Below, piece after piece: positions 19,861 to 44,055 of a stretch of 50,577 nucleotides of DNA. Under the pieces are notes generated by a model that ran no database searches, was not told where the DNA came from, and worked only from the letters and a program-made list of their open reading frames with translations. A program made the translations under genes and the position numbers. This DNA comes from Mariprofundaceae bacterium (lineage in GTDB: Bacteria; Pseudomonadota; Zetaproteobacteria; Mariprofundales; Mariprofundaceae). The stretch spans positions 1-50,577 of the forward strand of contig JBHHXG010000001.1 in assembly GCA_046756985.1 (NCBI GenBank), given 5' to 3'. The first letter of the stretch is position 1; every line of letters begins with the position of its first letter.

Positions 19861-19953
19861 TGATTCATAAAGCTATTCCAAAGTGAATTGTCCTGCCAGC
19901 CGGAAGGGGCCGAAAAGAACTGAAAAGGTTATTTGGCCTTGCGAGGTGAACAC

Positions 19954-20352: not shown

Positions 20353-20369
20353 TCCTGCATTGACTATCT

Positions 20370-21816: not shown

Positions 21817-21817
21817 T

Positions 21818-27452: not shown

Positions 27453-28066
27453 GCTGCCTCCTTGAACAGGGATGTAATTAATTCGGCAAAATCCGAACCT
27501 TTTGAGAGCGCCGGCAGGATTTCAACATCCTCCCCTCTCGCCATGGTTGCCATCTCGTCCATGCTTTTGCCATCGAAGAGCAGCATCGGCTGCAGGCGGA
27601 TCGCGCCGACGCCATCCTCACGCCACAGCCGGATCACCGAGGCGATCGTCGGTTCGGCATGCAGGGCACCGTGCGCGACCAGCGTGCAGCGTTTGTTGCG
27701 CTCGTGCAATGCTGCATTTAGGGCCTCAAAACCGGCATAGCAGTAAAGACCAAACAGCGCGTTGACCCGCCGACCTTCTGCCGTCATCCGGTCGTAGGCA
27801 AGCTCGGCGATGCGATCCGCATGCGCGGCCAGTGACGGCAGCAGCATAGCCTGTGACTTTTCCGCCAGCTTTGGCGCATCCACCGCCCCGTGCTGTCCAT
27901 AACCAAGGAACAGCGGCAGCACCCGTGTGCCTTTGGGTAGCCACTCATCAGACAAAAACGCCGCCTTTACCTCCTCACTCAGCCGTTGCGAAACACCCGC
28001 CGCCAAAGCCCGCACCTGCTCACCGTGGCGTTGATCCGAGGAACCATGCGCCAGCAGCACAAACAT
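27449..28066 (-). CDS. cbiX: CbiX/SirB class II chelatase (sirohydrochlorin cobalto- or ferrochelatase)
   Basis: 205 aa. VLLAHGSSD and PLFLGYGQHGAVDAP in the first lobe, a second lobe LVAHGA. ATGA-type overlap with cobA. Confidence 0.75.
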   Translation of the reverse strand: MFVLLAHGSSDQRHGEQVRALAAGVSQRLSEEVKAAFLSDEWLPKGTRVLPLFLGYGQHGAVDAPKLAEKSQAMLLPSLAAHADRIAELAYDRMTAEGRRVNALFGLYCYAGFEALNAALHERNKRCTLVAHGALHAEPTIASVIRLWREDGVGAIRLQPMLLFDGKSMDEMATMARGEDVEILPALSKGSDFAELITSLFKEAA

Positions 28067-28626
28067 CAGAATTCGATTCCCTGCGTGGCCTTGATGCCCT
28101 GATCAAAGGCATGCTTGATCTTCTTCATTTCTGTCACGGTGTGCGCCATGGCGATCACTTCATCTGCAGCATTGCGGCCGGTCAGAATCACATGCATCCA
28201 TTCGGGTCGCTCCTGACGCAAAAACTCGGCAATCTCCGCGCCGCTAATCCAGCCGTAGTCACAGCAATAATTGATCTCATCCCAGACAACCAGATCATAG
28301 GCTTGTGAACGCACCTTATCCTTGCATAGCGCCCATATTTCACGGCTGGTTTGCCTGTCCTGCTCTGGGTTTTTCGTATCCCAGGTAAAGCCTTCGCCAA
28401 GCGCATGCCACTCAATTTTCTCAAAGCGTTCGGCTGCTTTCTGTTCCCCTGTCTGCCATTTGCCCTTGATAAACTGGATAACGCACACTTTCATACCCCA
28501 GGCGGCTGCACGGAATACCATACCAAAGGCAGAGGACGATTTACCCTTGCCCTCCCCGGTATTCACCACAATCAATCCCTGCCGCTTGTCACGCTGTTTC
28601 AAGTGTTCTCCTGTAGTCGGGCACAA
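28066..28626 (-). CDS. cobO: Cob(I)yrinic acid a,c-diamide adenosyltransferase
   Basis: 186 aa. GLIVVNTGEGKGKSSSAFG, VIQFIKGKW and LVVWDEINY are typical of CobO/BtuR. Confidence 0.92.
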   Translation of the reverse strand: MCPTTGEHLKQRDKRQGLIVVNTGEGKGKSSSAFGMVFRAAAWGMKVCVIQFIKGKWQTGEQKAAERFEKIEWHALGEGFTWDTKNPEQDRQTSREIWALCKDKVRSQAYDLVVWDEINYCCDYGWISGAEIAEFLRQERPEWMHVILTGRNAADEVIAMAHTVTEMKKIKHAFDQGIKATQGIEF

Positions 28627-29341
28627 TCAGTTGGCCCTCTTCCAGGCGCAGGATCGGCATATGAAACAATGCCTCAAGCCTGTCCGGAACCAGCATCGCC
28701 TCCGCATCGCCGTGAGCCACACGCCCATCGCCATAGATAAACACGACTATGTCCGCCGCACAAGCCGCCTGCTGCACATCATGCAGCACAGAAACGACGG
28801 CTTTGCCCATATCAGCCTGTTCACGCATCAGTGCAAGCCATGTGGACTGATGCCTGAGATCCAGGTGAGCCGTCGGTTCATCAAGCAGCAATACCGGACA
28901 GTCGCGCAACAGGACAGCCGCCAACTCGGCGCGCTGCCGCTCGCCGGTGGACAATTCACCCAACATGCGTGTCAGCAAATGGTCTATATCCAGTTCGGCC
29001 GCCACCTGTTGCAAGGCTTCACATTGGCCATCCTGCATGGCCAGCTCCAACCGCTGTTTCACGGTGAGGCCGAACTCTGTGGGTGGCAGCTCCCCCTGCC
29101 ATGCCAGATGCCTGGCAATATGCCTGCGGGATAATTCCCTGATATTGCTCTCTCCCAATTCGATACGCCCCGACTGAACCGGAAGCATACCGGCCAGAGC
29201 CAGCAACAGGCTCGATTTTCCCGCGCCATTTGGCCCCAATACAGCAATCACCTTGCCGGCGTCTATATTCATACTCAGCGCTTCGGCAATTGCATGACTG
29301 CCACGTGCCAGATACAGATCGTGTAGCCTGAGCATACTCAT
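28589..29341 (-). CDS. btuD: ABC transporter ATP-binding protein, cobalamin/iron-chelate type
   Basis: Walker A GPNGAGKSS, signature LSTGERQR, Walker B LLLDEP. Start at MSMLRL gives an ATGA overlap with the permease stop. Confidence 0.85.
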   Translation of the reverse strand: MSMLRLHDLYLARGSHAIAEALSMNIDAGKVIAVLGPNGAGKSSLLLALAGMLPVQSGRIELGESNIRELSRRHIARHLAWQGELPPTEFGLTVKQRLELAMQDGQCEALQQVAAELDIDHLLTRMLGELSTGERQRAELAAVLLRDCPVLLLDEPTAHLDLRHQSTWLALMREQADMGKAVVSVLHDVQQAACAADIVVFIYGDGRVAHGDAEAMLVPDRLEALFHMPILRLEEGQLIVPDYRRTLETA

Positions 29342-30282
29342 CCCCGCTTCAGCAGCAGCCACAAAAATACAGGTACGCCAATCAGGGCGGTGATCACACC
29401 TACCGGCAGTTCAGCAGGGGCAATGACAGTTCTCGCACCGGTATCAGCCAGCATAAGCAGTATGCCGCCGCCAAGGGCCGAAGAAGGCAGAACCATGCGG
29501 TGCAGACTGCCGAATAGCAGGCGCATGATGTGCGGCACGATAAGACCAACAAAGCCAATCGTGCCCGCCGCAGCTACGGCTATTGAGGTCACCGCCGAGG
29601 CAAGAAAGAGCAACATCAGGCGAAGCCGCCGGATATCAATACCCAGTGCCACAGCATGGGCTTCACCCAAAAGTAACATGTCCAGTGATCGTGAAAGAGC
29701 CATACCGCAGGCCAGCGATGCTGTCCATATAGCCAACAGACCTGCTACCGGAATTTCCGATGCAGACAGATCTCCCATCATCCAACCAAATGCCATACCC
29801 AGTTGCTGCGCAGGCAGCAGGGCCAGCAGTAGTGCTACGCATGCGCCCCAGAAGGCGGCCAGCACAACGCCTGCCAGCAACAGGCGTGATGGGCCAAGAT
29901 GTGAAAAAGCCATAATCAGAATGATGCCGATCCATGCACCGGCGAAGGCGCCAGCTGACATCGACCATGCCGATGCTGGCATCAGAGCAACGCTGCATAT
30001 GGCTCCGACGGCGCTGCTTCCCGCCACACCGAGTACGTAAGGCTCAGCCAGTGGATTCCCCAACAGCACCTGAAACCATGCACCGGCCAAGGCCAGCAGG
30101 CCTCCGACAACAAAGGCAATCAGTATGCGGGGCATGCGTAATTCCCACAGAATCGTCTGTTCAAGTGCTGACTGGGGGCTGAAGGGGTTGATCCAGCCAT
30201 CGCCGGAACCAAGGCTGATGATGCCGACAAGGGCAGCAAGCACCAGTAAAACCACTGCCAGAGTCCAGTGATTAAATGTCAT
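29338..30282 (-). CDS. btuC: FecCD-family ABC permease (BtuC-like)
   Basis: About 314 aa and about 10 TM. LRMPRILIAFVVGGLLALAG and the C-terminal GVITALIGVPVFLWLL are typical of FecCD/BtuC. Confidence 0.85.
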   Translation of the reverse strand: MTFNHWTLAVVLLVLAALVGIISLGSGDGWINPFSPQSALEQTILWELRMPRILIAFVVGGLLALAGAWFQVLLGNPLAEPYVLGVAGSSAVGAICSVALMPASAWSMSAGAFAGAWIGIILIMAFSHLGPSRLLLAGVVLAAFWGACVALLLALLPAQQLGMAFGWMMGDLSASEIPVAGLLAIWTASLACGMALSRSLDMLLLGEAHAVALGIDIRRLRLMLLFLASAVTSIAVAAAGTIGFVGLIVPHIMRLLFGSLHRMVLPSSALGGGILLMLADTGARTVIAPAELPVGVITALIGVPVFLWLLLKRG

Positions 30283-31069
30283 TGGCCACCTTGCGAAGCC
30301 GGGCAGACAAAATCTCAATACCGTCAATCAACCGCGGGCCCGGCCGGCTGATCATATCCTGCGGTACCGGAACAACTTTCACACTGTCTCCGAAATATTG
30401 ATGCCAGAACCGTCTGCGGACCGGGACATGCCCCGGCATATCGGGAACCAGAATCGCCACTGGGCGCGCCTTGATCACCGACTCTACACTGATGCGCGGG
30501 CTTTCGACGGCCACGTGGTCAAACACGTTTTTTGCCCCGGATGCGCGCAATACATCGGTGATAAAACTTCTGGCACCCGAGCTCACCAGCGGTTCGCTCC
30601 ATGCCTCGTAAAATACCGGTATCGGCTCTGCGATCTGCTGATGAATCCGTTTCAGTCTCATTGTAAAATTATCTGCCAGCACCCGCGCCTGTCTGATATG
30701 GCCTGTCAGGTGCCCCAGATTCAGGATATCATGCACCACGTCCTGCACGGTCCGCGGATGACTTTGTATGACCTTGACACGAAAGGATTCCAGTTTCAGA
30801 AGGCCGGACATATGCCGGTCAAACACTACCGCCATCGTGGGTTCAAGACGGAGCGCGACCTCGATATTGACGCGTTTGAAATCCCCTACGCTCGGCAACT
30901 GCTGCACGGCTTCCGGATAGTCACAGGCATCAGCAACGCCAACCACATCTTTTCCTGCCCCGACGGCAAACAGAATTTCGCAGGCATGTGGCGATAACGC
31001 CAGAATGCGTTCTGCCGACTGCGCCAGCGGCGCAATCAACAGTAATATCGACAGAACGACAATTCTCAC
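30272..31069 (-). CDS. btuF: Periplasmic substrate-binding protein, BtuF/cluster A type
   Basis: ILALSPHACEILFAVGAG and VVGVADACDYP are typical of BtuF-like binding proteins. I place the start at GTG (Val30 of the track ORF 30272..31156). This gives a Sec signal ending AQSA and a GTGA overlap with the tonB-like stop. The start is uncertain. Confidence 0.75.
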   Translation of the reverse strand: MRIVVLSILLLIAPLAQSAERILALSPHACEILFAVGAGKDVVGVADACDYPEAVQQLPSVGDFKRVNIEVALRLEPTMAVVFDRHMSGLLKLESFRVKVIQSHPRTVQDVVHDILNLGHLTGHIRQARVLADNFTMRLKRIHQQIAEPIPVFYEAWSEPLVSSGARSFITDVLRASGAKNVFDHVAVESPRISVESVIKARPVAILVPDMPGHVPVRRRFWHQYFGDSVKVVPVPQDMISRPGPRLIDGIEILSARLRKVANDI

Positions 31070-31779
31070 AGTTTTCTGAAACGCAGCCGAAAGTGGAACG
31101 ATCTTTCGGCGGCGGGAAATGGCTGGGCGCGCTTGACCGTTTCCTTCGCCGCCCAATCAAGCAAATCATAACCTGAGCTGGCCAGCACCATGATTTCAGC
31201 GGCCATACCAAGCTGATCAAGCATGAATCCAACTTCAACCTCGCCTGCAATTCCCCGCCTGCGGGCGCTGGCAGGATAGAACTTGTGGGCTTCCAGATGC
31301 TGCCTGACCCGCTCGCCGGCTTCCCCCCTGACATCCCCGCTTTGTACAGAATCCGCCGACAAATGTTCTGCCACACCCATGCCGTTATTCAAACCAGGGT
31401 GATTTACCACTTCCGAGGCGGATACCGGAAGCGGTATTTCTGCTCTGGCAATTTTGGGAGCCTGGTTGATGGCCGTTCCGGTTTTTGACGGCTCCCGAAG
31501 TGACTTGTCTGGCTGTACCGATTCTGTTTCCAGACTGGCATCTGCATGAACATTGACGGCCAGCATTTCAACCTCGACCATCATTCGGCCTGCGGCAGCC
31601 TGGGGGACCTGAACCACATCCCAGAGGCACAACACGATCAGGCCGTGGATGACAACACTTGCTGCCAGCCACGGGCAGAAGCGAAAAATATCAGAACCTA
31701 TAGCCGGCTCCGGCACGAACGCCAATTTCCGGTGAAGGGTAGAAATTGTCGGTTCCAGAGAATGATGAGAACACACCAT
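31066..31779 (-). CDS. tonB: TonB-family energy transducer
   Basis: 237 aa. One N-terminal TM helix, a linker, and the C-terminal TonB domain YPASARRRGIAGEVEVGFMLDQLG. The ATG at 31779 lies 89 nt inside the upstream receptor gene. Confidence 0.75.
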   Translation of the reverse strand: MVCSHHSLEPTISTLHRKLAFVPEPAIGSDIFRFCPWLAASVVIHGLIVLCLWDVVQVPQAAAGRMMVEVEMLAVNVHADASLETESVQPDKSLREPSKTGTAINQAPKIARAEIPLPVSASEVVNHPGLNNGMGVAEHLSADSVQSGDVRGEAGERVRQHLEAHKFYPASARRRGIAGEVEVGFMLDQLGMAAEIMVLASSGYDLLDWAAKETVKRAQPFPAAERSFHFRLRFRKL

Positions 31780-33625
31780 AACTGCTGTATTTCTTATTTG
31801 TCAGATTGTCGATGCGGGCAAAAATTTCCATGTCTTTCCAACGATAGCTGGCCACCGCATCGAGCACCAGATAGGAAGGCAGCTGCGATCTCGCATTTGC
31901 CTGATCACTGATCAGGAACGACTGGCCGACATACGTCAGGTTCAGTGTCGTGGAAAAGCCATGTCCCCAATCAGCCAGCCAGGACGCGCCAACGCGATTT
32001 TTTGCCACGGCAGGGATTTCATTGCCGGAAAACACGCCACCATGGAATGTTGCTTTTGTGTAAGCGTAGTTAGCACTCAGGATGGCCCGGTCATGGGCCC
32101 GCCAGTGGCCGGACACGGCAATGACATCATGCCGCGTTGGGTCCGCATAATTCTCATTGGCGAATGCCAGCGGATTGAAAAATATTTCATGATCCAGATC
32201 GGCGCGGCTCAGCGATGCCTCCAGCCATACACGATTCCAGTCTTGGCGCAGACTGATGGCATAATGCTGGCCAGTTTGCGCCAGTAGCGATGTGTTGACC
32301 GCTCCGGTAAAGAAATCAAAGCGTTCATCCAGCAATGGGAAACGTACCGAACTGGCAGCATTCAGTCGCAGGCGGAGCTGTTCGGTAATGCCAAAGGAAA
32401 TTCCGCTCTCCCATACAGTCTCGCGCTGCGAAACAGAGTTTGTTGCCGTCTGGGTAAATATATCCTCAACCTTCTCGGTACGGACCCCGCCACTGACATG
32501 CCAGCGATGATCGGCGCTTCCTGCCTCCACAAGGCCATAATAGCCATCCCGTTTGCGATCAAAAAATGTTGTCGGCAGCGGGAAGGCGCCGCCAAAGACA
32601 AAAGAGCCATCGCCACGGTCAATATCGGCCCCTGTAACCAGATGCCAGCGGACATCATTACCGGCCGCATAACTCAGCTTGGGTCGGAAAGACCGATTCT
32701 GCTGAACGAAATCGCTGTTGGATGAAAAAAACCCAAAAAACTCGGAATGCACATCCCGCCTGCGAAAACCACCAGCAAGATCAAGCGTCAGACCAGATAT
32801 GCCACTCCATACCAGACCGCCATCAATAAAATCATCCGTTGACCGGCTGAAGTCCTGTGGATTTGCTGCCTGCCTACGATCGACGATAATTTGTGCCGCC
32901 GTCAGCGCACCCGGCAGACCCGCACGGTCCCGATGATGATTGCCGCTGATATTCAGGCTGATATTAGCAGGCAAATCGGCCTCGGCCCGTACACCGCCGT
33001 CGAAACGGTCGAAGAAACTGTTGTCGCGATACCCGTCTGTCGTGGTGCCCGAGAAATTCGTCTCAACGCGCACCTTGCCAGCATCCGCGCCGATACGTCC
33101 CGCACCCTCAAACGTACCGAAGCTGCCGCCTGACAGACTGATATTGCCGCCTGACTCCGGAATACGGGTAATGATGTTAATCACACCACCGACTGCGCCA
33201 TCCCCATACAGCACCGAGCCACCACCATGAACAATTTCAATACGCTCAATCTGATCAACAGGAATCTGGCTCCAGTCCACACCGGAAAGATCGGGGCTGT
33301 TGACTCGCCTGCCATCAATCAGAACAATACTGTTTGCGGCTGCTGTCTCACCGTAACCGCCCAGATCAACACGTGATTTTGCACCCACGCCGGTAATGTC
33401 ACTGACGACAATATTGGCCTGCCCCTTGAGTAGATCGACAACATTCCCGGCGTGGCTACCCTCAATGGTTTGCCTGTCGATGATGGTAACCGCCCGGGAT
33501 GATGTGATCGATGGCGCCTGTGTACGTGTGGCTGTTACGTTAATGGTACCCAGATCTTCCTGAGCATGTGCAATCAGAGGCATGCCGAGCATGACCACAA
33601 CTACGAATTTGATCTGTTTTGTCAT
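31691..33625 (-). CDS. btuB: TonB-dependent outer-membrane receptor, cobalamin type (BtuB-like)
   Basis: 644 aa. Signal peptide, TonB box-like INVTATRT, plug domain, C-terminal GAGYRF. Directly preceded by a cobalamin riboswitch. Confidence 0.85.
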   Translation of the reverse strand: MTKQIKFVVVVMLGMPLIAHAQEDLGTINVTATRTQAPSITSSRAVTIIDRQTIEGSHAGNVVDLLKGQANIVVSDITGVGAKSRVDLGGYGETAAANSIVLIDGRRVNSPDLSGVDWSQIPVDQIERIEIVHGGGSVLYGDGAVGGVINIITRIPESGGNISLSGGSFGTFEGAGRIGADAGKVRVETNFSGTTTDGYRDNSFFDRFDGGVRAEADLPANISLNISGNHHRDRAGLPGALTAAQIIVDRRQAANPQDFSRSTDDFIDGGLVWSGISGLTLDLAGGFRRRDVHSEFFGFFSSNSDFVQQNRSFRPKLSYAAGNDVRWHLVTGADIDRGDGSFVFGGAFPLPTTFFDRKRDGYYGLVEAGSADHRWHVSGGVRTEKVEDIFTQTATNSVSQRETVWESGISFGITEQLRLRLNAASSVRFPLLDERFDFFTGAVNTSLLAQTGQHYAISLRQDWNRVWLEASLSRADLDHEIFFNPLAFANENYADPTRHDVIAVSGHWRAHDRAILSANYAYTKATFHGGVFSGNEIPAVAKNRVGASWLADWGHGFSTTLNLTYVGQSFLISDQANARSQLPSYLVLDAVASYRWKDMEIFARIDNLTNKKYSSYGVFSSFSGTDNFYPSPEIGVRAGAGYRF

Positions 33626-33682
33626 TTATATTCCTTTTTGCGCCCGCCGCGCATTTCAATTGCGGGCTGGAACGCTTCAAGG

Positions 33683-33960
33683 AAAAAACTGGTTGTCAGA
33701 GAAGCCATTCACAGTAGTGGCCAGTCCACGACCAGCCTCCCGCCGAGGCCCAATCCCGTTTGGAATCCGTGGATTCCCTGTTTCGGGCCGGTCTCCTGGC
33801 TTGCCGTCATACTCTGCTGCTCATCCCTTCCCGGTTTTCCAGTGGTGTTGGAACAGCATTGTCAGGCTTACAGTAGCGGGGGCTGCGCCGGAATTGGTAT
33901 TTTTTACCGCACCGGACTTCCCGTTTCACCCTGCTGCCGGAATAGCAGACAGAGCACCCA
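33683..33960 (-). promoter_or_regulatory. Cobalamin (AdoCbl) riboswitch in the btuB-like leader
   Basis: The minus-strand RNA contains GGGAAGUCCGGUGCGG, then AAUUCCGGCGCAGCCCCCGCUACUGUAAGC, then the B12 box AAGCCAGGAGACCGGCC (plus 33786-33802). Downstream is an imperfect hairpin ending in U6 (plus A-run 33683-33688). A GCCCGC/GCGGGC stem lies next to the AAAGGAA ribosome-binding site. Confidence 0.88.
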
Positions 33961-34046
33961 AAACGGGAAGCACTCTACTTTACATTAAAATAAAATCCAG
34001 CTTGAAAGGGTGTGCTTAGATGAGTTGCTTAAATGCTAAACGTGCT

Positions 34047-35993
34047 TTACAGACTGACCTGGCGATACACATCCAGCCATTTGGCCAGATTAACCGGCTC
34101 CTGGGTCAATAAGGTTGCCCGTACATGGCTATCGATCGCCTGACTTATAAGTGCATAGCTTTCTTTCTTTTTCTGATCATTTTTCCGGGCAAGCACGGTT
34201 AGGTTTTTACGCGCCATATCCATACCCTGATCGGCAGCTTTCTGGAACCATCGCCGGGCTTTGTTATGGTCGTGGCCGACACCACGGCCCAGAGCATACA
34301 TATAACCCAGTGAGTTTTGAGCGGCGGCAAGGCCCTGTTCGGCAGCCTTCTGATACCACAGGGCCGCCATGCGATCATTTTGTTCCACACCTTCACCCTT
34401 GCGATACATGTTTCCCAGATTGAATTGTCCTTTGGCATCGCCATTGTTAGCGGCCTTGCGAAACCATGTAACGGCTTTTACAGGATCAAAAGCCACGCCT
34501 TTGCCTTCATGGTACATCGAACCCAGCATATTCTGGGCGGTTACATCACCACCTAAAGCTGCCTGCTCAAATAATGCGGCTGCCCTGGCCAAGTCTCTTG
34601 TGATACCCCTGCCATTGTAATGCAGCACCGCCATATTGAAGATGGCATCCATATCACCCTGTGCCGCCGCCTTTTCATACCAGTTAGCCGCTTCCTCCGC
34701 ATTGCGGCCAACACCACGACCCAGATCGTAAAACAGGCCCAGCATCAGCTTGGCCCGGGCATTACCGTTTTTCTCTGCCTTGTAGAGCCATTTTGCAGAT
34801 GCTTCATCATTGGGTGTAACCCCAACCCCTCGGGCATAAATCAGCCCCAGATTGAACTGTGCCTTGGCATTGTCTCCGGAAGCATGATCAAGCCAGTAAA
34901 ACATTTGCCTCATATTTTTTACAATGCCCCGCCCCAGCGCATGCATGGCTGCAATATTATTCTGCGCATCCGACAATCCAGCTCTCGCTGCTTTCAAGAA
35001 CCACTCCGATGCCTTTGTTTCATCTTTTGGAACACCCATGCCTTCAGCATGGAGAATACCCAGATTGCACTGTGCCCGTGCTATACCTGCATCGGCCGCC
35101 TTGCGTAACCAGAAAATTGCCTTTTGATAATTTTTTGCAACACCCCGCCCCAATGCATACATGGCACCAATCGCCGCCGCCGCCCGCATTTGCCCCTGCC
35201 TTGCGGCCTCCAGAAAGTGACGGGCAGCCTCTTCATCATGGCCGGCTTCTCCAGCTTCCAGCGCCAGATATTTTGCCAATTGGTAGCGCGCTTCTCTGTG
35301 GCCCGTCACGGCCGCCTTGCGTAGCCAGGACACATAGGCCGTTTTGTCCTTTTCAACGCCCAGCCCCTGCTTATACAGCAAGGCCAGACTATACTGCGCC
35401 TGATTGCCGCCTTCCTGTGCCTTGGCCTTCATTCGGCTAATCAGTTGCTGTAGATATGGCGCCGCTTCCCGGATCCCTTTTTGCGCGGCTTTTACTGCCC
35501 AGATCAGGGCCGTTTCATCACTTTGGGGACCCCCCCTGCCCTCGGCATACATCACCGCCACACGGTACTGAGCCATGCCATAGCCCTGCTCAGCCGCCTT
35601 AAGGTACCACCTAAGAGCCTCTGTATCGTTAACAGCCTCCACACCGCGGCCGGTTTCAAACTGACGTCCGAAATAATATTGCGCCGCGCTGTGTCCCTGC
35701 CGTGCTGCAAGGCGGAGCCAGCGAGCAGCCTGCCCGTCATCACGGTCCACGCCTTTGCCTTCAAGGTAAAGCATGCCGAATCTGAAGCGCCCTTCTGCTT
35801 CTCCCTGACGGGCCGACTGCGCAAACCACTTGGCCGCATCCTCAAAACGATTGTCCTCGTAAGCTGATTGCCCCAGCGCCAGCAAATCGGCGTCTGTAGC
35901 ACTATAGTCGGAACCGGACACAACAAAATAGACGATGCCTCCGCCCAGCAGCACGAAGGCAACCACGCCTATAAGCACTTTCATCATCTGCAT
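34047..35993 (-). CDS. Large Sel1-repeat (SLR/TPR-like) protein, N-terminally membrane anchored
   Basis: 648 aa. One N-terminal TM helix followed by about 15 Sel1 units of about 36 aa (pattern A..W..KAA.QG...AQ..LG.MY..G.GV). Confidence 0.85.
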   Translation of the reverse strand: MQMMKVLIGVVAFVLLGGGIVYFVVSGSDYSATDADLLALGQSAYEDNRFEDAAKWFAQSARQGEAEGRFRFGMLYLEGKGVDRDDGQAARWLRLAARQGHSAAQYYFGRQFETGRGVEAVNDTEALRWYLKAAEQGYGMAQYRVAVMYAEGRGGPQSDETALIWAVKAAQKGIREAAPYLQQLISRMKAKAQEGGNQAQYSLALLYKQGLGVEKDKTAYVSWLRKAAVTGHREARYQLAKYLALEAGEAGHDEEAARHFLEAARQGQMRAAAAIGAMYALGRGVAKNYQKAIFWLRKAADAGIARAQCNLGILHAEGMGVPKDETKASEWFLKAARAGLSDAQNNIAAMHALGRGIVKNMRQMFYWLDHASGDNAKAQFNLGLIYARGVGVTPNDEASAKWLYKAEKNGNARAKLMLGLFYDLGRGVGRNAEEAANWYEKAAAQGDMDAIFNMAVLHYNGRGITRDLARAAALFEQAALGGDVTAQNMLGSMYHEGKGVAFDPVKAVTWFRKAANNGDAKGQFNLGNMYRKGEGVEQNDRMAALWYQKAAEQGLAAAQNSLGYMYALGRGVGHDHNKARRWFQKAADQGMDMARKNLTVLARKNDQKKKESYALISQAIDSHVRATLLTQEPVNLAKWLDVYRQVSL

Positions 35994-36098
35994 GTCCTTC
36001 CTCCGCTCATCCGCTCATCCGCTGTACAGCAGATCTACGCCCCAGTATAGCAGAATAGCCGCCTGTGCAAGAAACAGCGGAGGAGCCGTCGCATGTCC

Positions 36099-37559
36099 CT
36101 AAAGTCCCAGTTCGTTCCACATGACGTCAACGCGCTGTTTGATCTCCGCAGACATGTGGACAGGACGACCCCATTCCCGGCTGCTTTCGCCCGGCCACTT
36201 GTTTGTTGCATCAATGCCAACCTTGGAACCAAGTCCGGCAACAGGTGAAGCAAAATCGAGATAATCAATCGGCGTATTTTCAGCAAATGTGAAATCACGC
36301 GCCGGGTCGCAGCGCGTGGACACCGCCCAGATGACCTCGGGCCATACGCGGCAATCGATATCCTCATCCACAACAATGATGAACTTCGTGTACATGAACT
36401 GACGCAAATAGGACCATATGCCAAACATCACTCGTTTGGCATGGCCTGCATAGCCCTTCTTAATCGAAACGACCGCCACCCGGTACGGGCACCCCTCCAT
36501 CGGCAGATAGAAATCCACAATCTCGGGAAACTGCTTTTGCAGAATCGGCACAAACACCTCATTCAGGGCAAGCCCCAGTACGGCAGGCTCATCCGGTGGC
36601 TTACCGGTGTATGTCGTATGGTAAATGGCATCGCTGCGCATGCTCATCGTTTCCACGGTGAATACCGGAAAGCGCTCTACCTCGTTGTAATAGCCGGTAT
36701 GATCTCCAAACGGACCTTCCTCGGCATATTCATCGAGAGAAACATGGCCTTCCAGTACGATCTCGGCTGAGGCCGGAACCTGCAACGGCACTGAAACCGC
36801 GTCGGTTAACACGGTTTTCTCGCCTCGCAAAAGACCTGCAAACTGATATTCGGACAGCGTATCGGGTATGGGTGTCACTGCCGCCAGTATGGTGGCGGGA
36901 TCAACACCTATGACGACGGCACACGGAAATGACTCGGCTCCTGCCTGCTTTGCTTCCCGGTGATCCTGTGCGCCACCGCGATGTTTCAGCCAGCGCATAA
37001 TCAGCTTGTTCCTGCCGATGACCTGCTGACGATAAATACCAAGGTTCTGCCGCTCCTTATTCGGCCCCCTGGTCACCACCAGACCCCAGGTAACAAGCGG
37101 CGCTGCATCCTCAGGCCAGCAGTGCTGGACAGGCAACTTCGCCAGATCCACTTCATCGCCTTGAAGAATGACTTCCTTCCATGGCGCTTTTTTGACCTGT
37201 TTCGGCGCCATATGCAGCACCTTTTTCAATACCGGCCATTTGTCCCAGACATCTTTCAGCCCCTTGGGTGGCTCCGGCTCCTTCAGATAGGCCAGCAGCT
37301 CGCCAACCTCGCGCAACTCCTCCACCGATTCCCGGCCCATACCCAGCGCAATGCGCTCAGCTGTACCAAACAGGTTCGCCAGCACCGGTCTATCGCTGCC
37401 TTTGATCTGCTCAAACAACAATGCCGGGCCACCTTGTTGCAGTACACGATCGGCAATTTCGGTTATTTCAAGTCTAGAACTTACAGGAATGGAAATGCGC
37501 GCCAATAGCCCGCGGCGCTCGAGATCAGCAATGAAGTCATGCAGATCAGAATAACTCAT
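36099..37559 (-). CDS. ubiD: 4-hydroxy-3-polyprenylbenzoate decarboxylase (UbiD family)
   Basis: 486 aa. N-terminus [15 protein letters not shown], plus [16 protein letters not shown] and [10 protein letters not shown], typical of UbiD. Confidence 0.93.
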
Positions 37560-37891
37560 GCCGCCGGTTCGTCATCCTCGATTTCAAAAACCGTATCCAG
37601 CTTGGAAAGGATAAATACATCGCGCACGGTATCAGTGAGACCGGAGAGTACAAACTTCCCTCCCGTTTCACGGCTCCACTGCAGGCCTTCAATCAGCGTT
37701 GCAATCCCGGACGAATCCATGAAATGGACGCCATCAAGGGCAACATGAATCGTTTTCTGCTGTTCTGTCAGCAGCGGCTTCAGCCGTTTGCGAAGCTCTG
37801 TAGAGGTATGAATATTGACTTCGCCATTGATACGCAGCAGCACCTCATTTTCTGACTGCCGCTCTTCCGACACATCAATTGTTATGCCCAT
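37556..37891 (-). CDS. STAS-domain protein (anti-sigma-factor antagonist / MlaB-like)
   Basis: 111 aa from Met22 of the track ORF, preceded by [26 protein letters not shown] retains the phosphorylatable DSSG serine. The stop overlaps the ubiD ATG (ATGA). Confidence 0.82.
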
Positions 37892-38363
37892 GTTTATCTC
37901 CCCCGTTGATATATGAGACCAGAAGCCAGCGGTTTCCATCCGGTAGCGCTTCATGATGCACCTCGTCCATCACCGCACGGATCAGATGCAGCCCGAGTCC
38001 ACCCGGTGTCACATCATCCATGCATCTGCCTTGTAAGGTGTCCGCATTTTCAATGCCGGGGGCAAAGTCACGGAACGCAAAGCGAAGCTGCCTGCTGCCA
38101 TCTTCATTATGGTGAATACTCGCTTCCATCTCCACTGTTCCCGGTTTGCCGCCGTAGCCGTGTCGGGCGATATTGGCAAACAGCTCATCCACCGCCAACA
38201 CCATGCGGCTGCTTTCAATTTCATTCAGGCCAGCCCGCGCGCCCACGACTTCAACCATCGACTTCAGCACATGAATACAGTCATTGCAGCAATTCAGCTT
38301 GCAGCTGAGCCTGTCTGCATGACTGTCATCAATGTGATTCGCTGCCGCTTTATCTGTGTGCAT
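37875..38363 (-). CDS. RsbW/SpoIIAB-like anti-sigma serine kinase (HATPase_c_2)
   Basis: 162 aa. N-box DELFANIARH, G1-like FRDFAPGIE, G2 GGLGLHLI. Confidence 0.8.
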   Translation of the reverse strand: MHTDKAAANHIDDSHADRLSCKLNCCNDCIHVLKSMVEVVGARAGLNEIESSRMVLAVDELFANIARHGYGGKPGTVEMEASIHHNEDGSRQLRFAFRDFAPGIENADTLQGRCMDDVTPGGLGLHLIRAVMDEVHHEALPDGNRWLLVSYINGGDKHGHNN

Positions 38364-38372
38364 ATGATCCGG

Positions 38373-39299
38373 TCACGGCGTACTTGTTTCAGGAGCAGAC
38401 AGGGGCGCCACTTCAGGCCTGATTTCTGCAGGAAGCTTATCAAGCCGCTGCCGCCAGTACTCTGCCTGATCATCTTCTCCGGCATCCTCTGCCAGTGAAA
38501 CCAAGGCTTCCAGACTCACACGCTGCCCCTTTCTGTCTTTCAGCGCGCGATAGATGGACAACGACCTTTCCAGACTGTCCTGCCTTTCCGACACGCCGAT
38601 GTCTAGCCTCGAACGCAACAGCAATGTATGGGCCGCCAGCCTAGGGGCTCCCACCTGACGGCACAGGCGAAGCACATGTTCTGTTTCCTTCCGGGCCGCC
38701 TCATCGTCTGCAGATGCATGCGCCAGCATGGCCAGACCCATATGCGCTTCAGCCCGATAGGTCAGACCAATCCGTGTCTTTTTATCACTTTGGTTTGCGG
38801 CCCGTTCATATTCCTCGCGCGCAACATCCATACGGGCCTGGTACTGGGCCAGGCGGGCGGCGCTTAAGTGCACATCAACAGACCATTTCTTTTCCAGAGG
38901 CGGCGGTGTCCAAGCCTGCTGTCCTGCACGGGCCCTGGACATGGCGAGCCCCAGTTTTGCCCGCATATGCGTCAATTCGTGCTCATGCCGCTCGGCAACG
39001 GTCATGGATTGCAGAAATGCCTCTTCCGCCTTCTGTCTGTCACCCATAGCTGAACGTGCGATTGCCAGGTTGTACCAGGATTGTGCGGTCAGGGCGGTAT
39101 CATCAGCCAGCTGGGAAGCCAATAGAGCCCGCTGAAATGTCTTTTCTGCTGATGACCAGCGTTCTCGCTGCATCATAGCCACGCCGCTGCTGTTTAATGT
39201 CTGAACCCTGTCGACATAGGGGTTTTCAACCTCCGGCTGCTGTTTCCCACCGCCACAGCCATACAACAGTAAAAGCAACAGCAAAATTGCATATCTCAT
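38373..39299 (-). CDS. TPR-repeat lipoprotein
   Basis: 308 aa. Lipobox LLLYGCGGG. Alpha-helical TPR-like repeats (WYNLAIARSAMGDRQKAEEAF and others). Its ATG overlaps the MlaD-like stop. Confidence 0.75.
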   Translation of the reverse strand: MRYAILLLLLLLYGCGGGKQQPEVENPYVDRVQTLNSSGVAMMQRERWSSAEKTFQRALLASQLADDTALTAQSWYNLAIARSAMGDRQKAEEAFLQSMTVAERHEHELTHMRAKLGLAMSRARAGQQAWTPPPLEKKWSVDVHLSAARLAQYQARMDVAREEYERAANQSDKKTRIGLTYRAEAHMGLAMLAHASADDEAARKETEHVLRLCRQVGAPRLAAHTLLLRSRLDIGVSERQDSLERSLSIYRALKDRKGQRVSLEALVSLAEDAGEDDQAEYWRQRLDKLPAEIRPEVAPLSAPETSTP

Positions 39300-40300
39300 G
39301 GCCGCAAATCCAGTGCGGGTGGCGCCACTGTTTCATTTTCATCTGTTTCTATATCAGCATTATCGCCAAACAGCCATGAGCCGCGAAGCCCTTTCAACAG
39401 GCCACGCATCTCCTCGATCACGCTTCTCGATTCCCTCGCCAATCCCGGCAATTCAGGCGTCAACTCAGATAAATCTGCAGCCACGATGTCCAGCGATCGC
39501 GTTAGCTGGTCCACGTGGCCCAGTAGCATATTGATACGCGTGAAAGTCTCCGGCCCCTCTGCTCCCAGGCCTTTTGCCAGCGGCTGCAAATCATCCAGAA
39601 TGTTGGTTGTCAACTTCAGGGAATCTGACAGGCGTTCTACGACATGATGCTTGTCAATTTGCTCGGCAGTGGATTGCAAATGCAGCATGACCCTGGAAAA
39701 GCGTTCCAGGGCCTGCTGAATATCGGCACCCTTCACTTCTGAACTCAAGGCATTCAGTCTTGCGAAAGCCAGGCGAAGATCGCCATCCGGCTTATTCATC
39801 CATGTAGATAATTCTGCCAATTCGCGCAACAGCGTGTTGGCATTGGAGACTGCCGGCTTGATATCCAGCAACAGCTGTTCGATGCTCGCTTCTGTTTCGT
39901 AGGCAATCGTATCCCCGTCATTGACCACAGATCTTTCTGCATCCCCGGCAGATATCTCCAGCGCCTGCTCGCCGATCCATCCCTCCTTGATCAGCCGCAC
40001 CTTGGCACCGTAATGCACCATATGGCGGTACCGGTCCAGCAGCTGCATATCGATGCGGACTTTGCCCTCGTCAAGCAATTCCATACGATAGACACGGCCG
40101 ATGACAAAACCCTGGAACCTCACCGGTTGCCCCTCATAAAAAGAAGTGGCTGACGGCGGCGATGTATACAGATGAAACTTCTTGGCAAACACATCGGTGC
40201 GCACACTGATCACCAGTAGCAACAGAATGATGGTTCCTATGCCAATCATGACGAACCAGCCCACCTGGCGGCTCATGCCGGAAACAAAGTCCCGCTGCAC
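39296..40300 (-). CDS. MCE/MlaD-family protein with long coiled-coil C-terminus
   Basis: 334 aa. N-terminal TM helix, MCE domain (GQPVRFQGFVIGRVYRMELLDEGKVRIDMQL), then about 180 aa of helical extension. Confidence 0.82.
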   Translation of the reverse strand: MQRDFVSGMSRQVGWFVMIGIGTIILLLLVISVRTDVFAKKFHLYTSPPSATSFYEGQPVRFQGFVIGRVYRMELLDEGKVRIDMQLLDRYRHMVHYGAKVRLIKEGWIGEQALEISAGDAERSVVNDGDTIAYETEASIEQLLLDIKPAVSNANTLLRELAELSTWMNKPDGDLRLAFARLNALSSEVKGADIQQALERFSRVMLHLQSTAEQIDKHHVVERLSDSLKLTTNILDDLQPLAKGLGAEGPETFTRINMLLGHVDQLTRSLDIVAADLSELTPELPGLARESRSVIEEMRGLLKGLRGSWLFGDNADIETDENETVAPPALDLRP

Positions 40301-40320
40301 TTACATATCCCTCCCCGATC

Positions 40321-40971
40321 TCATGCCTTCCCCGGTATATCCAGTGACAGCGTGCGTGAAAACTCGACGCCTGATCCTTCGTGTTCTGTCGCTGTTAAAT
40401 ATAATATCCCTGAACCCAGGACATTCAATGCCTCAACAGCCAGCGCACGAAAATGCGTCAGCCGGTCGGGTGGCATGCCGACGTGCACTTCCTGAGCAAT
40501 GATGATGTCGGGGCGCCGCAACAGACAGCGGCCCAGACTTACCAGCGCATGGGTATAAGCGGAACGCTCTCCTGCCTGCTCGTTCAGTGAGGATGCCAAC
40601 CCTATAAACTCTGCCACCTCATTCACCTCATCTTCGGCTTTTTGCAGCCTCTCATCCTCACCCCGGTAAAGAAAGGGCAGTAAAAGATTCTCGCGTAGGC
40701 TCAGATTGGCCAACAACCCACGATGCCGGATCATACTCCCCACTTCTTCAATGAACTCCGGCGTCCCGGCCTGGATACTGGCCGTATCCGTCTCCAGCCA
40801 CATTTGCCATGCTTCTTCGCCCGGTCTGGGTTCGAAAAATAAATGCCGCATAAAATCATACTGACACCGCCCGTCAATGACCAGACGTACATATTCGCCA
40901 AAAGCCACTTTTCCTGACTGTATGATGCCATTCCCTAACTGCAGCTGACGCCAGCGCAGCGTGCCACTCAT
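40321..40971 (-). CDS. Degenerate ABC nucleotide-binding-domain homologue (MlaF position, catalytic motifs lost)
   Basis: 216 aa from MSGTLRW, with GAGGTG upstream. It aligns by eye to MlaF. Walker A is replaced by IDGRCQYD, the Q-loop by IRHRG, LSGGM by RSAYT, and Walker B FDEP by AQEV. Confidence 0.65.
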   Translation of the reverse strand: MSGTLRWRQLQLGNGIIQSGKVAFGEYVRLVIDGRCQYDFMRHLFFEPRPGEEAWQMWLETDTASIQAGTPEFIEEVGSMIRHRGLLANLSLRENLLLPFLYRGEDERLQKAEDEVNEVAEFIGLASSLNEQAGERSAYTHALVSLGRCLLRRPDIIIAQEVHVGMPPDRLTHFRALAVEALNVLGSGILYLTATEHEGSGVEFSRTLSLDIPGKA

Positions 40972-40981
40972 GGCCTGCACC

Positions 40982-41803
40982 TCACAACAGGCCGCCCAGA
41001 AGCACAAACAGCACATCAAGCAGAATCACGGTCATCAGCGAGCCCAGCACACCAAACGTGGCGCGCACTGGAATCTGATTCGGATCCCGCCCGACCCGGC
41101 ATCCCTGATCCAGCAACATGACGCAACAGAGCAGCGGATACAACATGCCCTTGCCAATCATCATCAGCACTTCTCCGATGCTGGTACCGCGGCGGACTTC
41201 GACAAGAAAATCTATTAAGTTCAACTGATGGGTCCAGGCAGAAATAAGCCCTCCGACCCAGATGGAAATGGCGACAAACATGAAGGTCAGAATCAGGCCG
41301 CATACTGCAAATGCCATGACGCGCGGCCAGAACAGGTATTCCTTGATATTGATGCCAAGGCTACGCAACGTCATGTCCTCACCGCGAATATGCATATGGG
41401 CGACTTCTGTCACCACAGCCACGCCGGAGCGGGCCAGCAGAAAAATCGTGACAAACAGCGGCGCAATCTCCTGCACCAGCACGTTGCTGATCAGGCTGCC
41501 AATCAGCGACATATCCTGAATGCTCTTGGCAAAGATAACTATGTTGTAGACGGCAAGCACGCCTGCCCCGAGCGAAATCAGCACCACCCAGGGCACACTT
41601 TGCACGCCGGTGAAATAAATCTGCCGTACCATCACGTATTTTACAGCCACATGCGAAAGCCACTGCAGCCGCAGCCCGATACCAAGCACCGATATCGTCA
41701 GACCATAAAACCGACGTATGCTATCGAACAGGCGCAGACTTGCTTCGCCGATGCGATCCGCCCGCCAGTGCCAGCCCTCCAAACGATACTGCCATCCCTG
41801 CAT
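40982..41803 (-). CDS. mlaE: MlaE-family ABC permease
   Basis: 273 aa. FYGLTISVLGIGLR and RQIYFTGVQSVPWVVLISLGAGVLAV, with about 5-6 TM, typical of MlaE/Ttg2B. Confidence 0.85.
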   Translation of the reverse strand: MQGWQYRLEGWHWRADRIGEASLRLFDSIRRFYGLTISVLGIGLRLQWLSHVAVKYVMVRQIYFTGVQSVPWVVLISLGAGVLAVYNIVIFAKSIQDMSLIGSLISNVLVQEIAPLFVTIFLLARSGVAVVTEVAHMHIRGEDMTLRSLGINIKEYLFWPRVMAFAVCGLILTFMFVAISIWVGGLISAWTHQLNLIDFLVEVRRGTSIGEVLMMIGKGMLYPLLCCVMLLDQGCRVGRDPNQIPVRATFGVLGSLMTVILLDVLFVLLGGLL

Positions 41804-41966
41804 ACCGTCTTTATAGGCTCGTACGGGAGAAAATCAAGCCATCTATTGCTGCGGAAAACCACAGACCCCAAATACCTGCGAGCACCGGCTTGCACCCATC
41901 ATTGCGCTTGGGTAGCGTCCCGCATCCGCCGAAAAAGCACGAAATAGCAACTCATCTGGGGGCATT

Positions 41967-43880
41967 ATGCTTGAAACCATGCGCAATCAGGCCCAATCAT
42001 GGATCGCCAAACTTATCCTTGGTGGTATTGCGCTGTCATTCGCATTGTGGGGCATTGGCGACTACTTCATGGGTGGCAGTCTGGTAACTGTTGCCGAAGT
42101 CGATGGCAAGCCGGTCAGCGAAGCTGAATTCTACCAAGCCTACGAACGCCAACTGAACACCTACCGGGCCATGCTTGGCAAGCAGTTTTCAAAGAGCACC
42201 ATTGACGCCATGGGCATCAAGCAGGATACCATACAAACCATCATCAACCGCCGTCTGATGCTGGATGAGGCCACGCATTTGGGATTGACAGCACCGGAAA
42301 CAACCGTTCTGGCGCGCGTCCGTTCCAACCCGGCATTCCAGTCCGCTGGCAGCTTCGATGCCCAGCGTTACCGCATCCTGACGCGTAACATGGGCTTCCG
42401 CACCCCTGCAGATTACGAAACCGATCTGCGGCTTAATCTGATGGTTGATGCCTTGCAGCAATCCATCATAAGCTCTGCAAACGTCAATGAACAGGAAATC
42501 CGTGACCGCTTTGCTGTGGAGTATGAGCAGCGGGAGATTGCCGCCATTATTATTGATCCCGATAGCCTGAGGGCAAAGGCAAACGTATCAGATGAACAGG
42601 CTCGGGCCTACTATGAGGCGCACAAGGAAAATTATCGCTCGCCGCTCAGGCTTAAGCTGACAGCGGTGGATATTTCTCCCGCGGCACTGGCTGTAGATAT
42701 CGCCGTTGATGACGAAGAAGTGCGCGCAGCCTATGAATCCAGAAAAGAGGAATTTTTCAAGCCGGAGGAGCGACAGGCTCGTCACATCCTGATACGCGTC
42801 AATGACAGTGCAACGGATGCGATGCGTACCGAGGCGCGTAACAAGATCGAGTCCGCACAGGCCCGTATCAAAGCCGGGGAAGGTTTCGCAGCGGTGGCCC
42901 GGGATGTCTCCGAGGATGTCACAGCCGACAAAGGCGGAGACCTGGGCTTTTTTGTACGTGGCGTCATGGTGCCGGCTTTTGATGAAGTTGCCTTTTCAAT
43001 GCAAAAAGGCGATATCAGTGATATTATTGAAACCCAGTTCGGATACCACCTGATCCAGCTTGTAGACATCAGGGCAGCCTCCGAAACGCCGTTTGAAGAA
43101 GTGCGCGAAACGCTTGCGGCTGAAATCAAATCAGCGCGCGCGGCGGAAGAAGCCTACAGGCTGTCCCAGGATCTGGATGATGCATTGGGTATGGAAGATT
43201 CACTGAAGGCGGCTGCCGAAAGCCTGAACCTGACCGTACACGAAATCGGCCCCATCAGTCAGGATGAAGCGCTTGCAAACAAGCTGTTGTCATCCGATCC
43301 GGCTTTGCGAGCGCAGACGTTTGCTATCCAGCCTGGCCAGGCCATCGAAATTACAGAACTTGATAACGGCCATTTTGCTGCTATCGAGGTGCTGGAGCGA
43401 ATCGAGCCGGATGTACTACCCTATGCCAAGGTCGCCGCTGCGGTGCATGAAGACGCACGGCATGCCGAAGCCATACGGCTGGCACGCGATCTGGCCGGCA
43501 AGATACTGGCCGAGACAGCCGGCAAAACACTGGATGCGCTGGTCCAGGCTTATGGACAGCCAAAATACATTTCCAAACCTGTGCGCAAGAGCGGCATTGG
43601 TGATGATGCCAGCTGGCTGACCTCATCTGTTCTGGATGCGGCCTTCCGGACCGCAAAAGGGCAATGGGTATCAAACATCCTGGAAGTGCCGCAAGGCCTG
43701 GCCATTGTGCGGGTACAGAGCGTGATTGCTCCATCCGAGGAAGAATACATCAGGCAGCGAAATGAACTCGCCGGGGAAGTCGAAAAGGCCAAGGGTGCCG
43801 TACGCTTTGCGCGCTGGATGGCATCCGTTCGCAACCGGCATGAAATCACCATTGACCAGACGGTGCTTGAGCGCTTTTAG
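41967..43880 (+). CDS. ppiD: Periplasmic chaperone / peptidyl-prolyl isomerase PpiD
   Basis: 637 aa. N-terminus MLETMRNQAQSWIAKLILGGIALSFALWG, and a central parvulin domain (ARHILIRV, GGDLGFF, FGYHLIQL). Confidence 0.92.
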   Translation: MLETMRNQAQSWIAKLILGGIALSFALWGIGDYFMGGSLVTVAEVDGKPVSEAEFYQAYERQLNTYRAMLGKQFSKSTIDAMGIKQDTIQTIINRRLMLDEATHLGLTAPETTVLARVRSNPAFQSAGSFDAQRYRILTRNMGFRTPADYETDLRLNLMVDALQQSIISSANVNEQEIRDRFAVEYEQREIAAIIIDPDSLRAKANVSDEQARAYYEAHKENYRSPLRLKLTAVDISPAALAVDIAVDDEEVRAAYESRKEEFFKPEERQARHILIRVNDSATDAMRTEARNKIESAQARIKAGEGFAAVARDVSEDVTADKGGDLGFFVRGVMVPAFDEVAFSMQKGDISDIIETQFGYHLIQLVDIRAASETPFEEVRETLAAEIKSARAAEEAYRLSQDLDDALGMEDSLKAAAESLNLTVHEIGPISQDEALANKLLSSDPALRAQTFAIQPGQAIEITELDNGHFAAIEVLERIEPDVLPYAKVAAAVHEDARHAEAIRLARDLAGKILAETAGKTLDALVQAYGQPKYISKPVRKSGIGDDASWLTSSVLDAAFRTAKGQWVSNILEVPQGLAIVRVQSVIAPSEEEYIRQRNELAGEVEKAKGAVRFARWMASVRNRHEITIDQTVLERF

Positions 43881-43979: not shown

Positions 43980-44055
<76 letters not shown>

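Follow-up and report, generated by a model that had tools for sequence, protein, structure and literature searches.

The closest known systems are trans-envelope MCE transporters such as PA3211-PA3214 of P. aeruginosa, which according to a 2026 study consists of an MlaE-like permease, an ATPase, the 312-residue needle-forming protein PA3213 and an outer-membrane lipoprotein that grips both the tip of the needle and the C-terminal peptide of the MCE protein (PMC13631591). In PA3213, as in PqiB, the C-terminal tail docks onto the outer-membrane lipoprotein (PMC13631591), and the Mpc system of Brucella, a chimeric Mla-Pqi transporter, resembles PA3211-PA3214 (PMC12436622). In E. coli MlaFEDB, Thr52 of the STAS protein MlaB and the helix that follows it sit in the middle of the interface with the ATPase MlaF, a T52E substitution weakens binding, and Kolich et al. 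(2020) proposed phosphoregulation of Thr52, for which no kinase is known (PMC7367683). A third arrangement is the long-MlaD bridge of Veillonella parvula, a type that is widespread according to the authors who described it (PMC10665443). Here we describe a seven-gene, Mla-like operon that ends in ubiD, located on the minus strand of a stretch of 50,577 nucleotides (nt) from a Mariprofundaceae bacterium of the Zetaproteobacteria (GCA_046756985.1, contig JBHHXG010000001.1, positions 1 to 50,577), the whole of which is called the window below. Its component families are all known and its core architecture has described relatives; what is unusual is the combination of a conserved but dead nucleotide-binding domain (NBD) with an embedded STAS/kinase pair.

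The seven genes run from 41803 to 36099. Their identities and spacings, obtained again from the open reading frame list, the sequence, and Pfam and NCBIfam models (with equivalog cut-offs), are the same as those mapped in an earlier note on this DNA, and are as follows.

40982-41803, minus strand: mlaE2, operon gene 1, encoding an MlaE-family permease of 273 residues
40321-40971, minus strand: the gene for NBDx, a pseudo-NBD of 216 residues, after a 10-nt gap from mlaE2
39296-40300, minus strand: the gene for MCE2, a long single-MCE protein of 334 residues, with a GTG start and after a 20-nt gap from NBDx
38373-39299, minus strand: the gene for a TPR lipoprotein of 308 residues, in an ATGA overlap with MCE2 (4 nt by coordinates)
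37875-38363, minus strand: the gene for an RsbW/SpoIIAB-type kinase (HATPase_c_2) of 162 residues, after a 9-nt gap from the TPR gene
37556-37891, minus strand: the gene for a STAS protein of 111 residues, in a 17-nt overlap with the kinase gene
36099-37559, minus strand: ubiD, encoding UbiD of 486 residues, in an ATGA overlap with the STAS gene that is read directly in the sequence

The start of NBDx is the ATG at 40971, which agrees with the orthologue N-termini MS[DG]xLxW, and a GGGGGAG lies six nt 5' of the STAS ATG.

With PA3211-PA3214 and Mpc the operon shares the order of MlaE-like permease, NBD, single-MCE needle protein of ~310-340 residues and outer-membrane lipoprotein (PMC13631591, PMC12436622), and it conserves the C-terminal MCE tail that docks on the lipoprotein in PA3213. 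It differs from them in that its NBD is a pseudo-ATPase, its lipoprotein is a TPR protein and not PqiC-like (DUF330), and STAS, kinase and ubiD genes are appended. E. coli MlaFEDB is likewise encoded in one operon that combines an MlaE permease and an MCE protein with an NBD-fold subunit and a small STAS protein of a single domain (PMC7367683, PMC5016091), and both STAS proteins have a Ser or Thr at the SpoIIAA phosphorylation position, which is Thr52 in MlaB and Ser60 here. However, the E. coli ATPase MlaF is active and has a C-terminal extension that helps to hold MlaB, and NBDx has neither the activity nor the extension; E. coli MlaD is a short protein partnered with MlaA and the MlaC shuttle; and the operon described here has a dedicated kinase and a STAS protein that scores as SpoIIAA/RsbV-type. 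Veillonella parvula MlaEFD likewise joins MlaE and an NBD to an elongated MlaD and has no need of MlaC or MlaA (PMC10665443), but its MlaD terminates in an outer-membrane beta-barrel and its MlaF is an ordinary ATPase, whereas here a separate TPR lipoprotein is present and the NBD is dead.

The oddest feature of the operon is NBDx, a conserved pseudo-ATPase that co-evolves with MlaE2 and MCE2; this is its most unusual point, and one that the earlier note underweighted. NBDx has no Pfam match and gives weak, partial ABC-ATPase matches over residues 70-190 only. Its AlphaFold2 model, computed from a 74-sequence alignment, has a predicted local distance difference test (pLDDT) score of 91, and a Foldseek search matches it over its entire length to ABC NBDs, among them MalK, LptB, FtsE, MlaF and MceG, with a query TM-score (TMq) of ~0.7 at 15-21% identity. 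Within this fold, Walker A (GxxGxGK[ST]), LSGGQ and the Walker B Asp are found in 0 of the 74 family members, in agreement with the earlier description of the NBD as degenerate. The P-loop position reads VxxxxxQYxF, with no Gly-Lys-Ser/Thr, and in place of the ABC motifs the family conserves RENLLLPFLY, GERSxYTHALVSLGRC and AQEVHxGM; when NBDx is aligned by hhalign with the canonical MlaF of M. micogutta, GERSAYT lies opposite ELSGGM and AQEVHVGMP opposite FDEPTSGLD. With these motifs gone, the pseudo-NBD would no longer be able to bind ATP. NBDx is a small, distinct and constrained family, because 26 columns are invariant across the 74 sequences and because an exhaustive search of 1.84 billion cluster representatives with its hidden Markov model returns 24 with E < 1e-10 before the E-values jump from 1e-24 to ~1e-7, where generic ABC ATPases appear. 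By mirror-tree analysis, MlaE2, NBDx and MCE2 co-vary with partial correlations of 0.60-0.72, and no other pair exceeds 0.38. A decaying pseudogene was also considered as an account of NBDx, and it is ruled out by the invariant columns, the confident fold and the co-evolution with neighboring genes.

The partners of NBDx in the core are recognizable members of their families that fall short of the canonical Mla models. MlaE2 matches PF02405 (E = 2.8e-36, 125.6 bits) and is under the NCBIfam MlaE equivalog cut-offs (73 vs 212 bits); its top sequence matches in the PDB are MlaE of P. aeruginosa, E. coli and Acinetobacter, and its identity in Zetaproteobacterial loci is 58-66%. MCE2, which is about twice as long as MlaD, comprises a transmembrane anchor, an MCE domain, a helical region of ~170 residues and a conserved C-terminal tail. 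It matches PF02470 (MlaD) with E = 7.9e-7 and, over residues 19-287, TIGR00996 (Mce), where mycobacterial Mce proteins are matched, with E = 5.6e-15, and it is under the TIGR04430 MlaD cut-off (41.5 vs 135 bits). Its profile matches end to end (14-315) the PDB chain 13hr_I, a 312-residue 'Mce/MlaD domain-containing protein' (E = 1.6e-10), which from its length and name is presumably PA3213 itself. Faint 'Helical_needle' matches occur in MCE2 orthologues, and a single-sequence AlphaFold2 monomer, whose confidence (pLDDT 52) is too low to support a fold search, places helices at 140-312. The tail reads SWLFG...VAPPxLDxRP, with S308, W309, G312 and P334 invariant. Taken together, the sequence features of MCE2 indicate a bridge-type MCE system.

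The lipoprotein encoded next to MCE2 matches TPR_12 (E = 2.1e-12), and yields TPR matches only and none to PqiC-like (DUF330) proteins. In ~40 orthologues its lipobox Cys is conserved, as are G/S/A in position +2 and an ENPY motif. The TPR gene also follows the MCE gene in two distant modules, L046 and the Nitrospirota locus L047, considered below. MlaC (PF05494) is absent from the operon, and in relatives it is found only within a separate canonical operon. The earlier note had the TPR lipoprotein replace MlaC, which holds for position only, since the full-length match of MCE2 to a needle-type MCE protein puts the TPR protein in the place of the PqiC/PA3214 cap. Because MCE2 has a conserved tail, the two genes overlap, the lipobox is conserved and the pair is like PA3213/PA3214, we infer that the TPR protein is an outer-membrane cap that stands functionally where PqiC or PA3214 stands, and not where MlaC does.

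The block is conserved in ~45 Zetaproteobacterial loci. In 37 species-representative genome loci and in metagenome contigs, the order MlaE2-NBDx-MCE2-TPR-(kinase)-STAS-UbiD is found in every related locus with a long enough contig, and most junctions are overlaps or gaps of <30 nt; order and spacing this constant are more than chance. The block persists down to 31% NBDx identity and across GC contents of 43-67%, and it lies in at least five upstream contexts, namely ppiD-trpE (in the window and many other loci), canonical mlaFEDC-yhdP (in M. micogutta and relatives), thioredoxin-glyQS (L045), DAO-rotamase-CxxCxxCC (L049) and FBPase-UDG (L046). Among the most divergent examples, L048 has the full set including ubiD with an NBDx that is 35% identical, and L050 has the full set at a GC content of 44%, with identities of 31% for NBDx, 29% for TPR, 42% for the kinase, 67% for STAS and 80% for UbiD; the contig of L049 ends within STAS. 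The order TPR-kinase-STAS holds in all kinase-bearing loci, these three included (NBDx 31-35% identical). All named homologues are from Mariprofundus, Mariprofundaceae or Zetaproteobacteria. In M. micogutta and others the block is a second MCE system beside an intact canonical mlaFEDC.

The loci of M. micogutta and relatives (L001:1243-7065 and L004:1274-7126) have the block directly after canonical mlaF-mlaE-mlaD-mlaC-yhdP, and the canonical MlaF beside the block has Walker A, LSGGM and Walker B intact. No mlaB is present in the canonical mla cluster of L001 and L004; among the 13 genes of this region, only the one that precedes ubiD encodes a STAS protein.

Distant copies of the core (L046, the Nitrospirota locus L047 and the P0270 locus) have pseudo-NBDs and neither STAS nor kinase, and L046 and L047 are also without ubiD. 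Since MCE and TPR genes occur with a degenerate NBD in such remote modules without STAS, kinase or ubiD, the four-gene core predates the appended genes and is more widely distributed, and pseudo-NBD MCE modules may extend beyond the Zetaproteobacteria. The Nitrospirota module (L047:8001-11005, metagenome-assembled genome GCA_016212095.1) has a degenerate NBD without the Walker A Lys that overlaps the end of purL. Downstream of it a 341-residue MCE protein is encoded, then an insertion with a RelB/ParE toxin-antitoxin pair, then a TPR protein; MlaE is not encoded next to the module. The P0270 locus encodes MlaE, an NBD with degenerate motifs (GDPWASTN, LLDDP) and an MCE protein of 334 residues.

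These distant copies bear on the possibility that MlaE2, the pseudo-NBD, MCE2 and the TPR protein form an envelope sensor and not a transporter, one that would report the lipid status of the outer membrane or periplasm to the cytoplasm, with STAS and the kinase as its output. Such a role would suit an assembly that has lost all ATPase motifs while keeping the fold and the co-evolution with MlaE2 and MCE2, that is attached to a signaling-type module, and that sits in genomes with an intact canonical Mla system. We nevertheless find it very doubtful, because the existence of distant pseudo-NBD cores without STAS or kinase argues that the core functions without a signaling output, and PqiABC and LetAB are MCE bridges that carry lipids although they have no ABC ATPase (see also PMC13631591).

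The second unusual element of the operon is the kinase-STAS pair. The kinase matches PF13581 (E = 1.3e-18) and is under the equivalog cut-offs of RsbW and SpoIIAB (for RsbW, NF003144, E = 1e-8 and 34.7 vs 145 bits); its sole PDB sequence match is RsbW 6m36 (E = 5.7e-4). The N-box, AVDELFANIxxHGY, and the G2 box, PGGLGL, are conserved. The STAS protein matches PF01740 (E = 4.5e-17) and passes TIGR00377, the anti-sigma-factor antagonist model (72.6 bits, above the cut-off of 53.45), and it is under the cut-off of the MlaB model NF033618 (25.3 vs 90 bits). Its best PDB matches are TM1442, RsbV and SpoIIAA, with no MlaB chain among those at E < 0.01. The search for STAS relatives outside the Zetaproteobacteria gave 71 matches, of which all source-named ones are from Mariprofundus or Mariprofundaceae. 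The DSSG serine that the earlier note had described as retained is Ser60, which aligns with Ser58 of SpoIIAA, and it is invariant in 33 STAS orthologues. At its N-terminus the kinase also has a Cys-rich stretch, C..LNC..DC[IV]HVL (residues ~12-38; window 38250-38330, minus strand), the DC Cys of which is kept in most sampled orthologues; this stretch could be redox- or metal-sensitive.

The kinase gene is missing in 9 of the 33 loci scored for STAS. On the concatenated tree these nine form one nested clade plus the separate L037, which amounts to at least two losses, and no kinase remnant is found in the TPR-STAS gaps of the kinase-less loci (best E = 0.2). Whether or not the kinase is encoded, Ser60 and the whole of helix a2, GIATLVEGLQWSR, do not vary. 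Positions I27, K38 and F57 behave differently, being invariant or nearly so (at least 23 of 24) in the 24 kinase-bearing sequences and having no residue in common with the nine kinase-less loci. The simplest reading is that I27, K38 and F57 serve contact with the kinase and that the Ser60/helix a2 surface would serve another, constitutive partner. Because STAS and its serine were retained through at least two losses of the kinase, STAS probably has a kinase-independent, MlaB-like role, and the kinase would be a modulator. The proposal of the earlier note that partner switching controls an MCE transporter thus stands insofar as the kinase and STAS are linked to the transporter genes, and does not stand as the core function of STAS. 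The C-terminal VPDVSGIW tail of NBDx does not track kinase loss, being present in a kinase-bearing sister clade too.

The likeness of the pair to RsbW-RsbV and SpoIIAB-SpoIIAA extends to gene arrangement, with a HATPase_c_2 kinase gene directly upstream of, and overlapping, a DSSG STAS gene, and to the constraint on putative kinase-facing STAS positions, which is seen only with the kinase present. It could be, then, that kinase and STAS are a conventional partner switch whose target is a sigma factor or other regulator encoded elsewhere, and that they are placed in this operon for co-expression with envelope genes. The matches of both proteins to the RsbW/RsbV family are what such a switch would predict, and proteobacterial partner switches with distant or non-sigma targets are known, among them BtrW/BtrV, SypE/SypA and HsbA. 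However, no sigma factor or PP2C phosphatase gene is found in the window or in the listed neighborhoods of the ~45 loci, and the pair lies in a transporter operon, fixed between the TPR gene and ubiD through deep divergence and changing flanks. Furthermore, the anti-sigma factor of such a switch would be the kinase, and it is the kinase that two lineages do without, while the antagonist persists and its surface is invariant; an effector role for the kinase would predict the reverse. We therefore regard a sigma-type target elsewhere as quite unlikely. Co-conservation was the check that the earlier note had set for its own proposal, and across the class the kinase and STAS genes do stay with the transporter genes, in varying flanks and with no sigma factor nearby.

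The best overall explanation of the operon, held at about even confidence, is an envelope-spanning second MCE system with a pseudo-NBD, in which STAS is a partner of the cytoplasmic module and the kinase is a switch. By homology with MlaFEDB and PA3211-PA3214, we infer an assembly built on an inner-membrane MlaE2 dimer, to which two pseudo-NBD subunits would bind from the cytoplasm and an MCE2 hexamer from the periplasm; the C-terminal helices of MCE2 would span the periplasm as a needle. At the outer membrane this needle would be capped by the TPR lipoprotein, the translation of which is coupled to that of MCE2 and which probably holds the conserved MCE2 tail as PA3214 and PqiC hold theirs. 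Since NBDx has no ATP-binding or catalytic motifs and is under strong constraint, ATP hydrolysis at NBDx would not drive the system, which is most likely a gated, equilibrative lipid conduit in which the pseudo-NBD may serve as a cytoplasmic scaffold or gate. STAS would be a constitutive partner of the cytoplasmic module, like MlaB on MlaF, with the pseudo-NBD as its proposed partner and with the contact formed by the invariant helix a2 that starts at Ser60. In most lineages the RsbW-type kinase would phosphorylate Ser60, so that STAS is detached or re-partnered and the conduit switched, and ubiD, presumably co-transcribed and translationally coupled, would link expression of the conduit to ubiquinone synthesis. 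The gene identities, the loss of motifs, the fold, the conservation and synteny, the pattern of kinase loss and the site-specific constraint in STAS are observed; the physical contacts, the phosphorylation, the direction of transport and the cargo in this model are all to be taken as predictions. Its most specific form, an ABC/MCE conduit that works without ATP hydrolysis at the NBD, is opened and closed by a phospho-controlled STAS protein and is coupled in expression to ubiquinone synthesis, we advance tentatively, as a possibility.

Several observations weigh against this model. The STAS protein appears from its matches to be of the SpoIIAA/RsbV type and not of the MlaB type. NBDx is without MlaF's C-terminal extension, and that extension contributes to MlaB binding in E. 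coli; therefore, the binding mode of STAS cannot be identical. The G1 box of the kinase is atypical, reading RD[FY]A instead of DxGxG, and no PP2C phosphatase is found in the window or any locus, so that a complete partner switch is at most putative. The full examples are all from one bacterial class, so that the synteny may in part be inherited order and not selection. STAS shows weak mirror-tree covariation with NBDx (partial correlation 0.21), UbiD (0.30) and the kinase (0.02), the value for NBDx being no higher than that for UbiD. Finally, L046 has only the four core genes, bounded by a tRNA-Leu and without kinase, STAS or ubiD, and L052 keeps an intact kinase-STAS-ubiD beside a degraded core; both suggest that kinase-STAS-ubiD is a unit separable from the core. 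L052 (1425-3389) lies on a metagenome contig, and its core is made up of fused fragments, with a non-matching N-terminal stretch, possibly from MlaE, then MCE ~177-298 and a frameshifted TPR, NBDx being gone. Such a locus either arose by natural deletion or is an artefact of assembly.

These last observations are shared by the main rival explanation, that kinase, STAS and UbiD are the functional unit, with a kinase-toggled STAS that regulates or chaperones UbiD or the ubiquinone pathway, and that the MCE genes are mere operon neighbors. STAS-ubiD is the most uniformly coupled junction of the operon, at -4 or -1 in most loci, usually -4, and overlapping again in L048 and L050, and the coupling is real and conserved class-wide. 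The covariation of UbiD with STAS, and of UbiD with the kinase (0.37), also exceeds that of STAS with NBDx. On the other hand, these mirror-tree values are weak and not independent, and the kinase, STAS and UbiD of L052 are 98-100% identical to those of L050, which makes the intact genes uninformative on selection, quite apart from the possible artefact. Moreover, UbiD is an ordinary housekeeping orthologue, ~80% identical across the class. It exceeds the NF008175 cut-off (821.3 bits against 788), has UbiD_N, UbiD and UbiD_C all present, and is 72-84% identical in all related loci, which marks it as a bona fide 4-hydroxy-3-polyprenylbenzoate decarboxylase. We know of no precedent for STAS regulation of a UbiD-family enzyme, a point at which no literature search was aimed, and we judge that STAS acting on UbiD is unlikely. 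The earlier suggestion of a quinone cargo, for its part, finds no support beyond gene adjacency, and distant copies of the core are without ubiD.

Returning to the model of a STAS-partnered conduit, if it is true the partner-switching module here targets an ABC pseudo-ATPase and not a sigma factor, and the operon would be a natural counterpart of the hypothesized phosphoregulation of E. coli MlaB at Thr52, which it fits. It pairs a STAS protein, with a Ser equivalent to MlaB Thr52, with a dedicated kinase beside the transporter; the kinase-less variants are natural controls, and the proteins are small and expressible in E. coli, so that regulation is directly testable. With respect to how MCE bridges are energized, the pseudo-NBD, which has preserved its fold through long evolution without any catalytic motif, would mean either that transport needs no ATP at the NBD site or that the NBD fold itself serves for structure or gating, and the degenerate-motif relatives in Nitrospirota and other lineages point to pseudo-NBD MCE systems as a possibly wider, overlooked class. 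A limit on this significance is that the system, as far as seen, occurs in one class of hard-to-grow iron oxidizers. The earlier note knew of no described system of this composition, and our full-text literature search likewise turned up no account of the operon, of pseudo-ATPase MCE systems or of a kinase beside an Mla-type STAS; the search left subscription journals mostly uncovered, and absence from it is not proof.

The surroundings of the block in the window contain the following features.

41804-41966, no strand: divergent intergenic region between mlaE2 and ppiD, 163 nt, the sole non-coding gap of >20 nt upstream of the block
43983-44055, minus strand: tRNA gene (Rfam, 61.7 bits), between ppiD and trpE and on the opposite strand
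34047-35993, minus strand: gene for a membrane-anchored Sel1-repeat protein of 648 residues (Sel1 E = 4.7e-100), 105 nt after ubiD
33769-33976, minus strand: cobalamin riboswitch (109.6 bits)

Upstream, the block is followed by the divergent ppiD, then the tRNA gene and then trpEGDC, and the 163-nt region is presumably the promoter region. A scan of 33500-42100 for promoter and terminator consensus sequences gave counts equal to the shuffled expectation and is uninformative on transcription units. Downstream, most loci have a Sel1 gene 22-139 nt after ubiD, at 44-55% identity, and L019 and L041 have none; the Sel1 gene is a frequent, non-universal neighbor, and its membership in the operon is uncertain. 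The cobalamin riboswitch marks the downstream boundary of the Mla-like/ubiD/Sel1 unit.

The riboswitch opens an unrelated B12 uptake and salvage operon (26697-33625, minus strand) with genes for a TonB-dependent receptor, TonB, a periplasmic binding protein, a FecCD permease, an ABC ATPase, the adenosyltransferase CobO, CbiX and a tetrapyrrole methylase. A second Sel1-repeat protein in the window, of 471 residues, is encoded at 10243-11658 (minus strand) and also has a DUF2846 domain. Finally, 18718-24050 encodes an NTP_transf_5 nucleotidyltransferase, a radical SAM/SPASM protein, a 292-residue protein without a Pfam match and a weak ATP-grasp match, a cluster that may be a peptide-modification locus.

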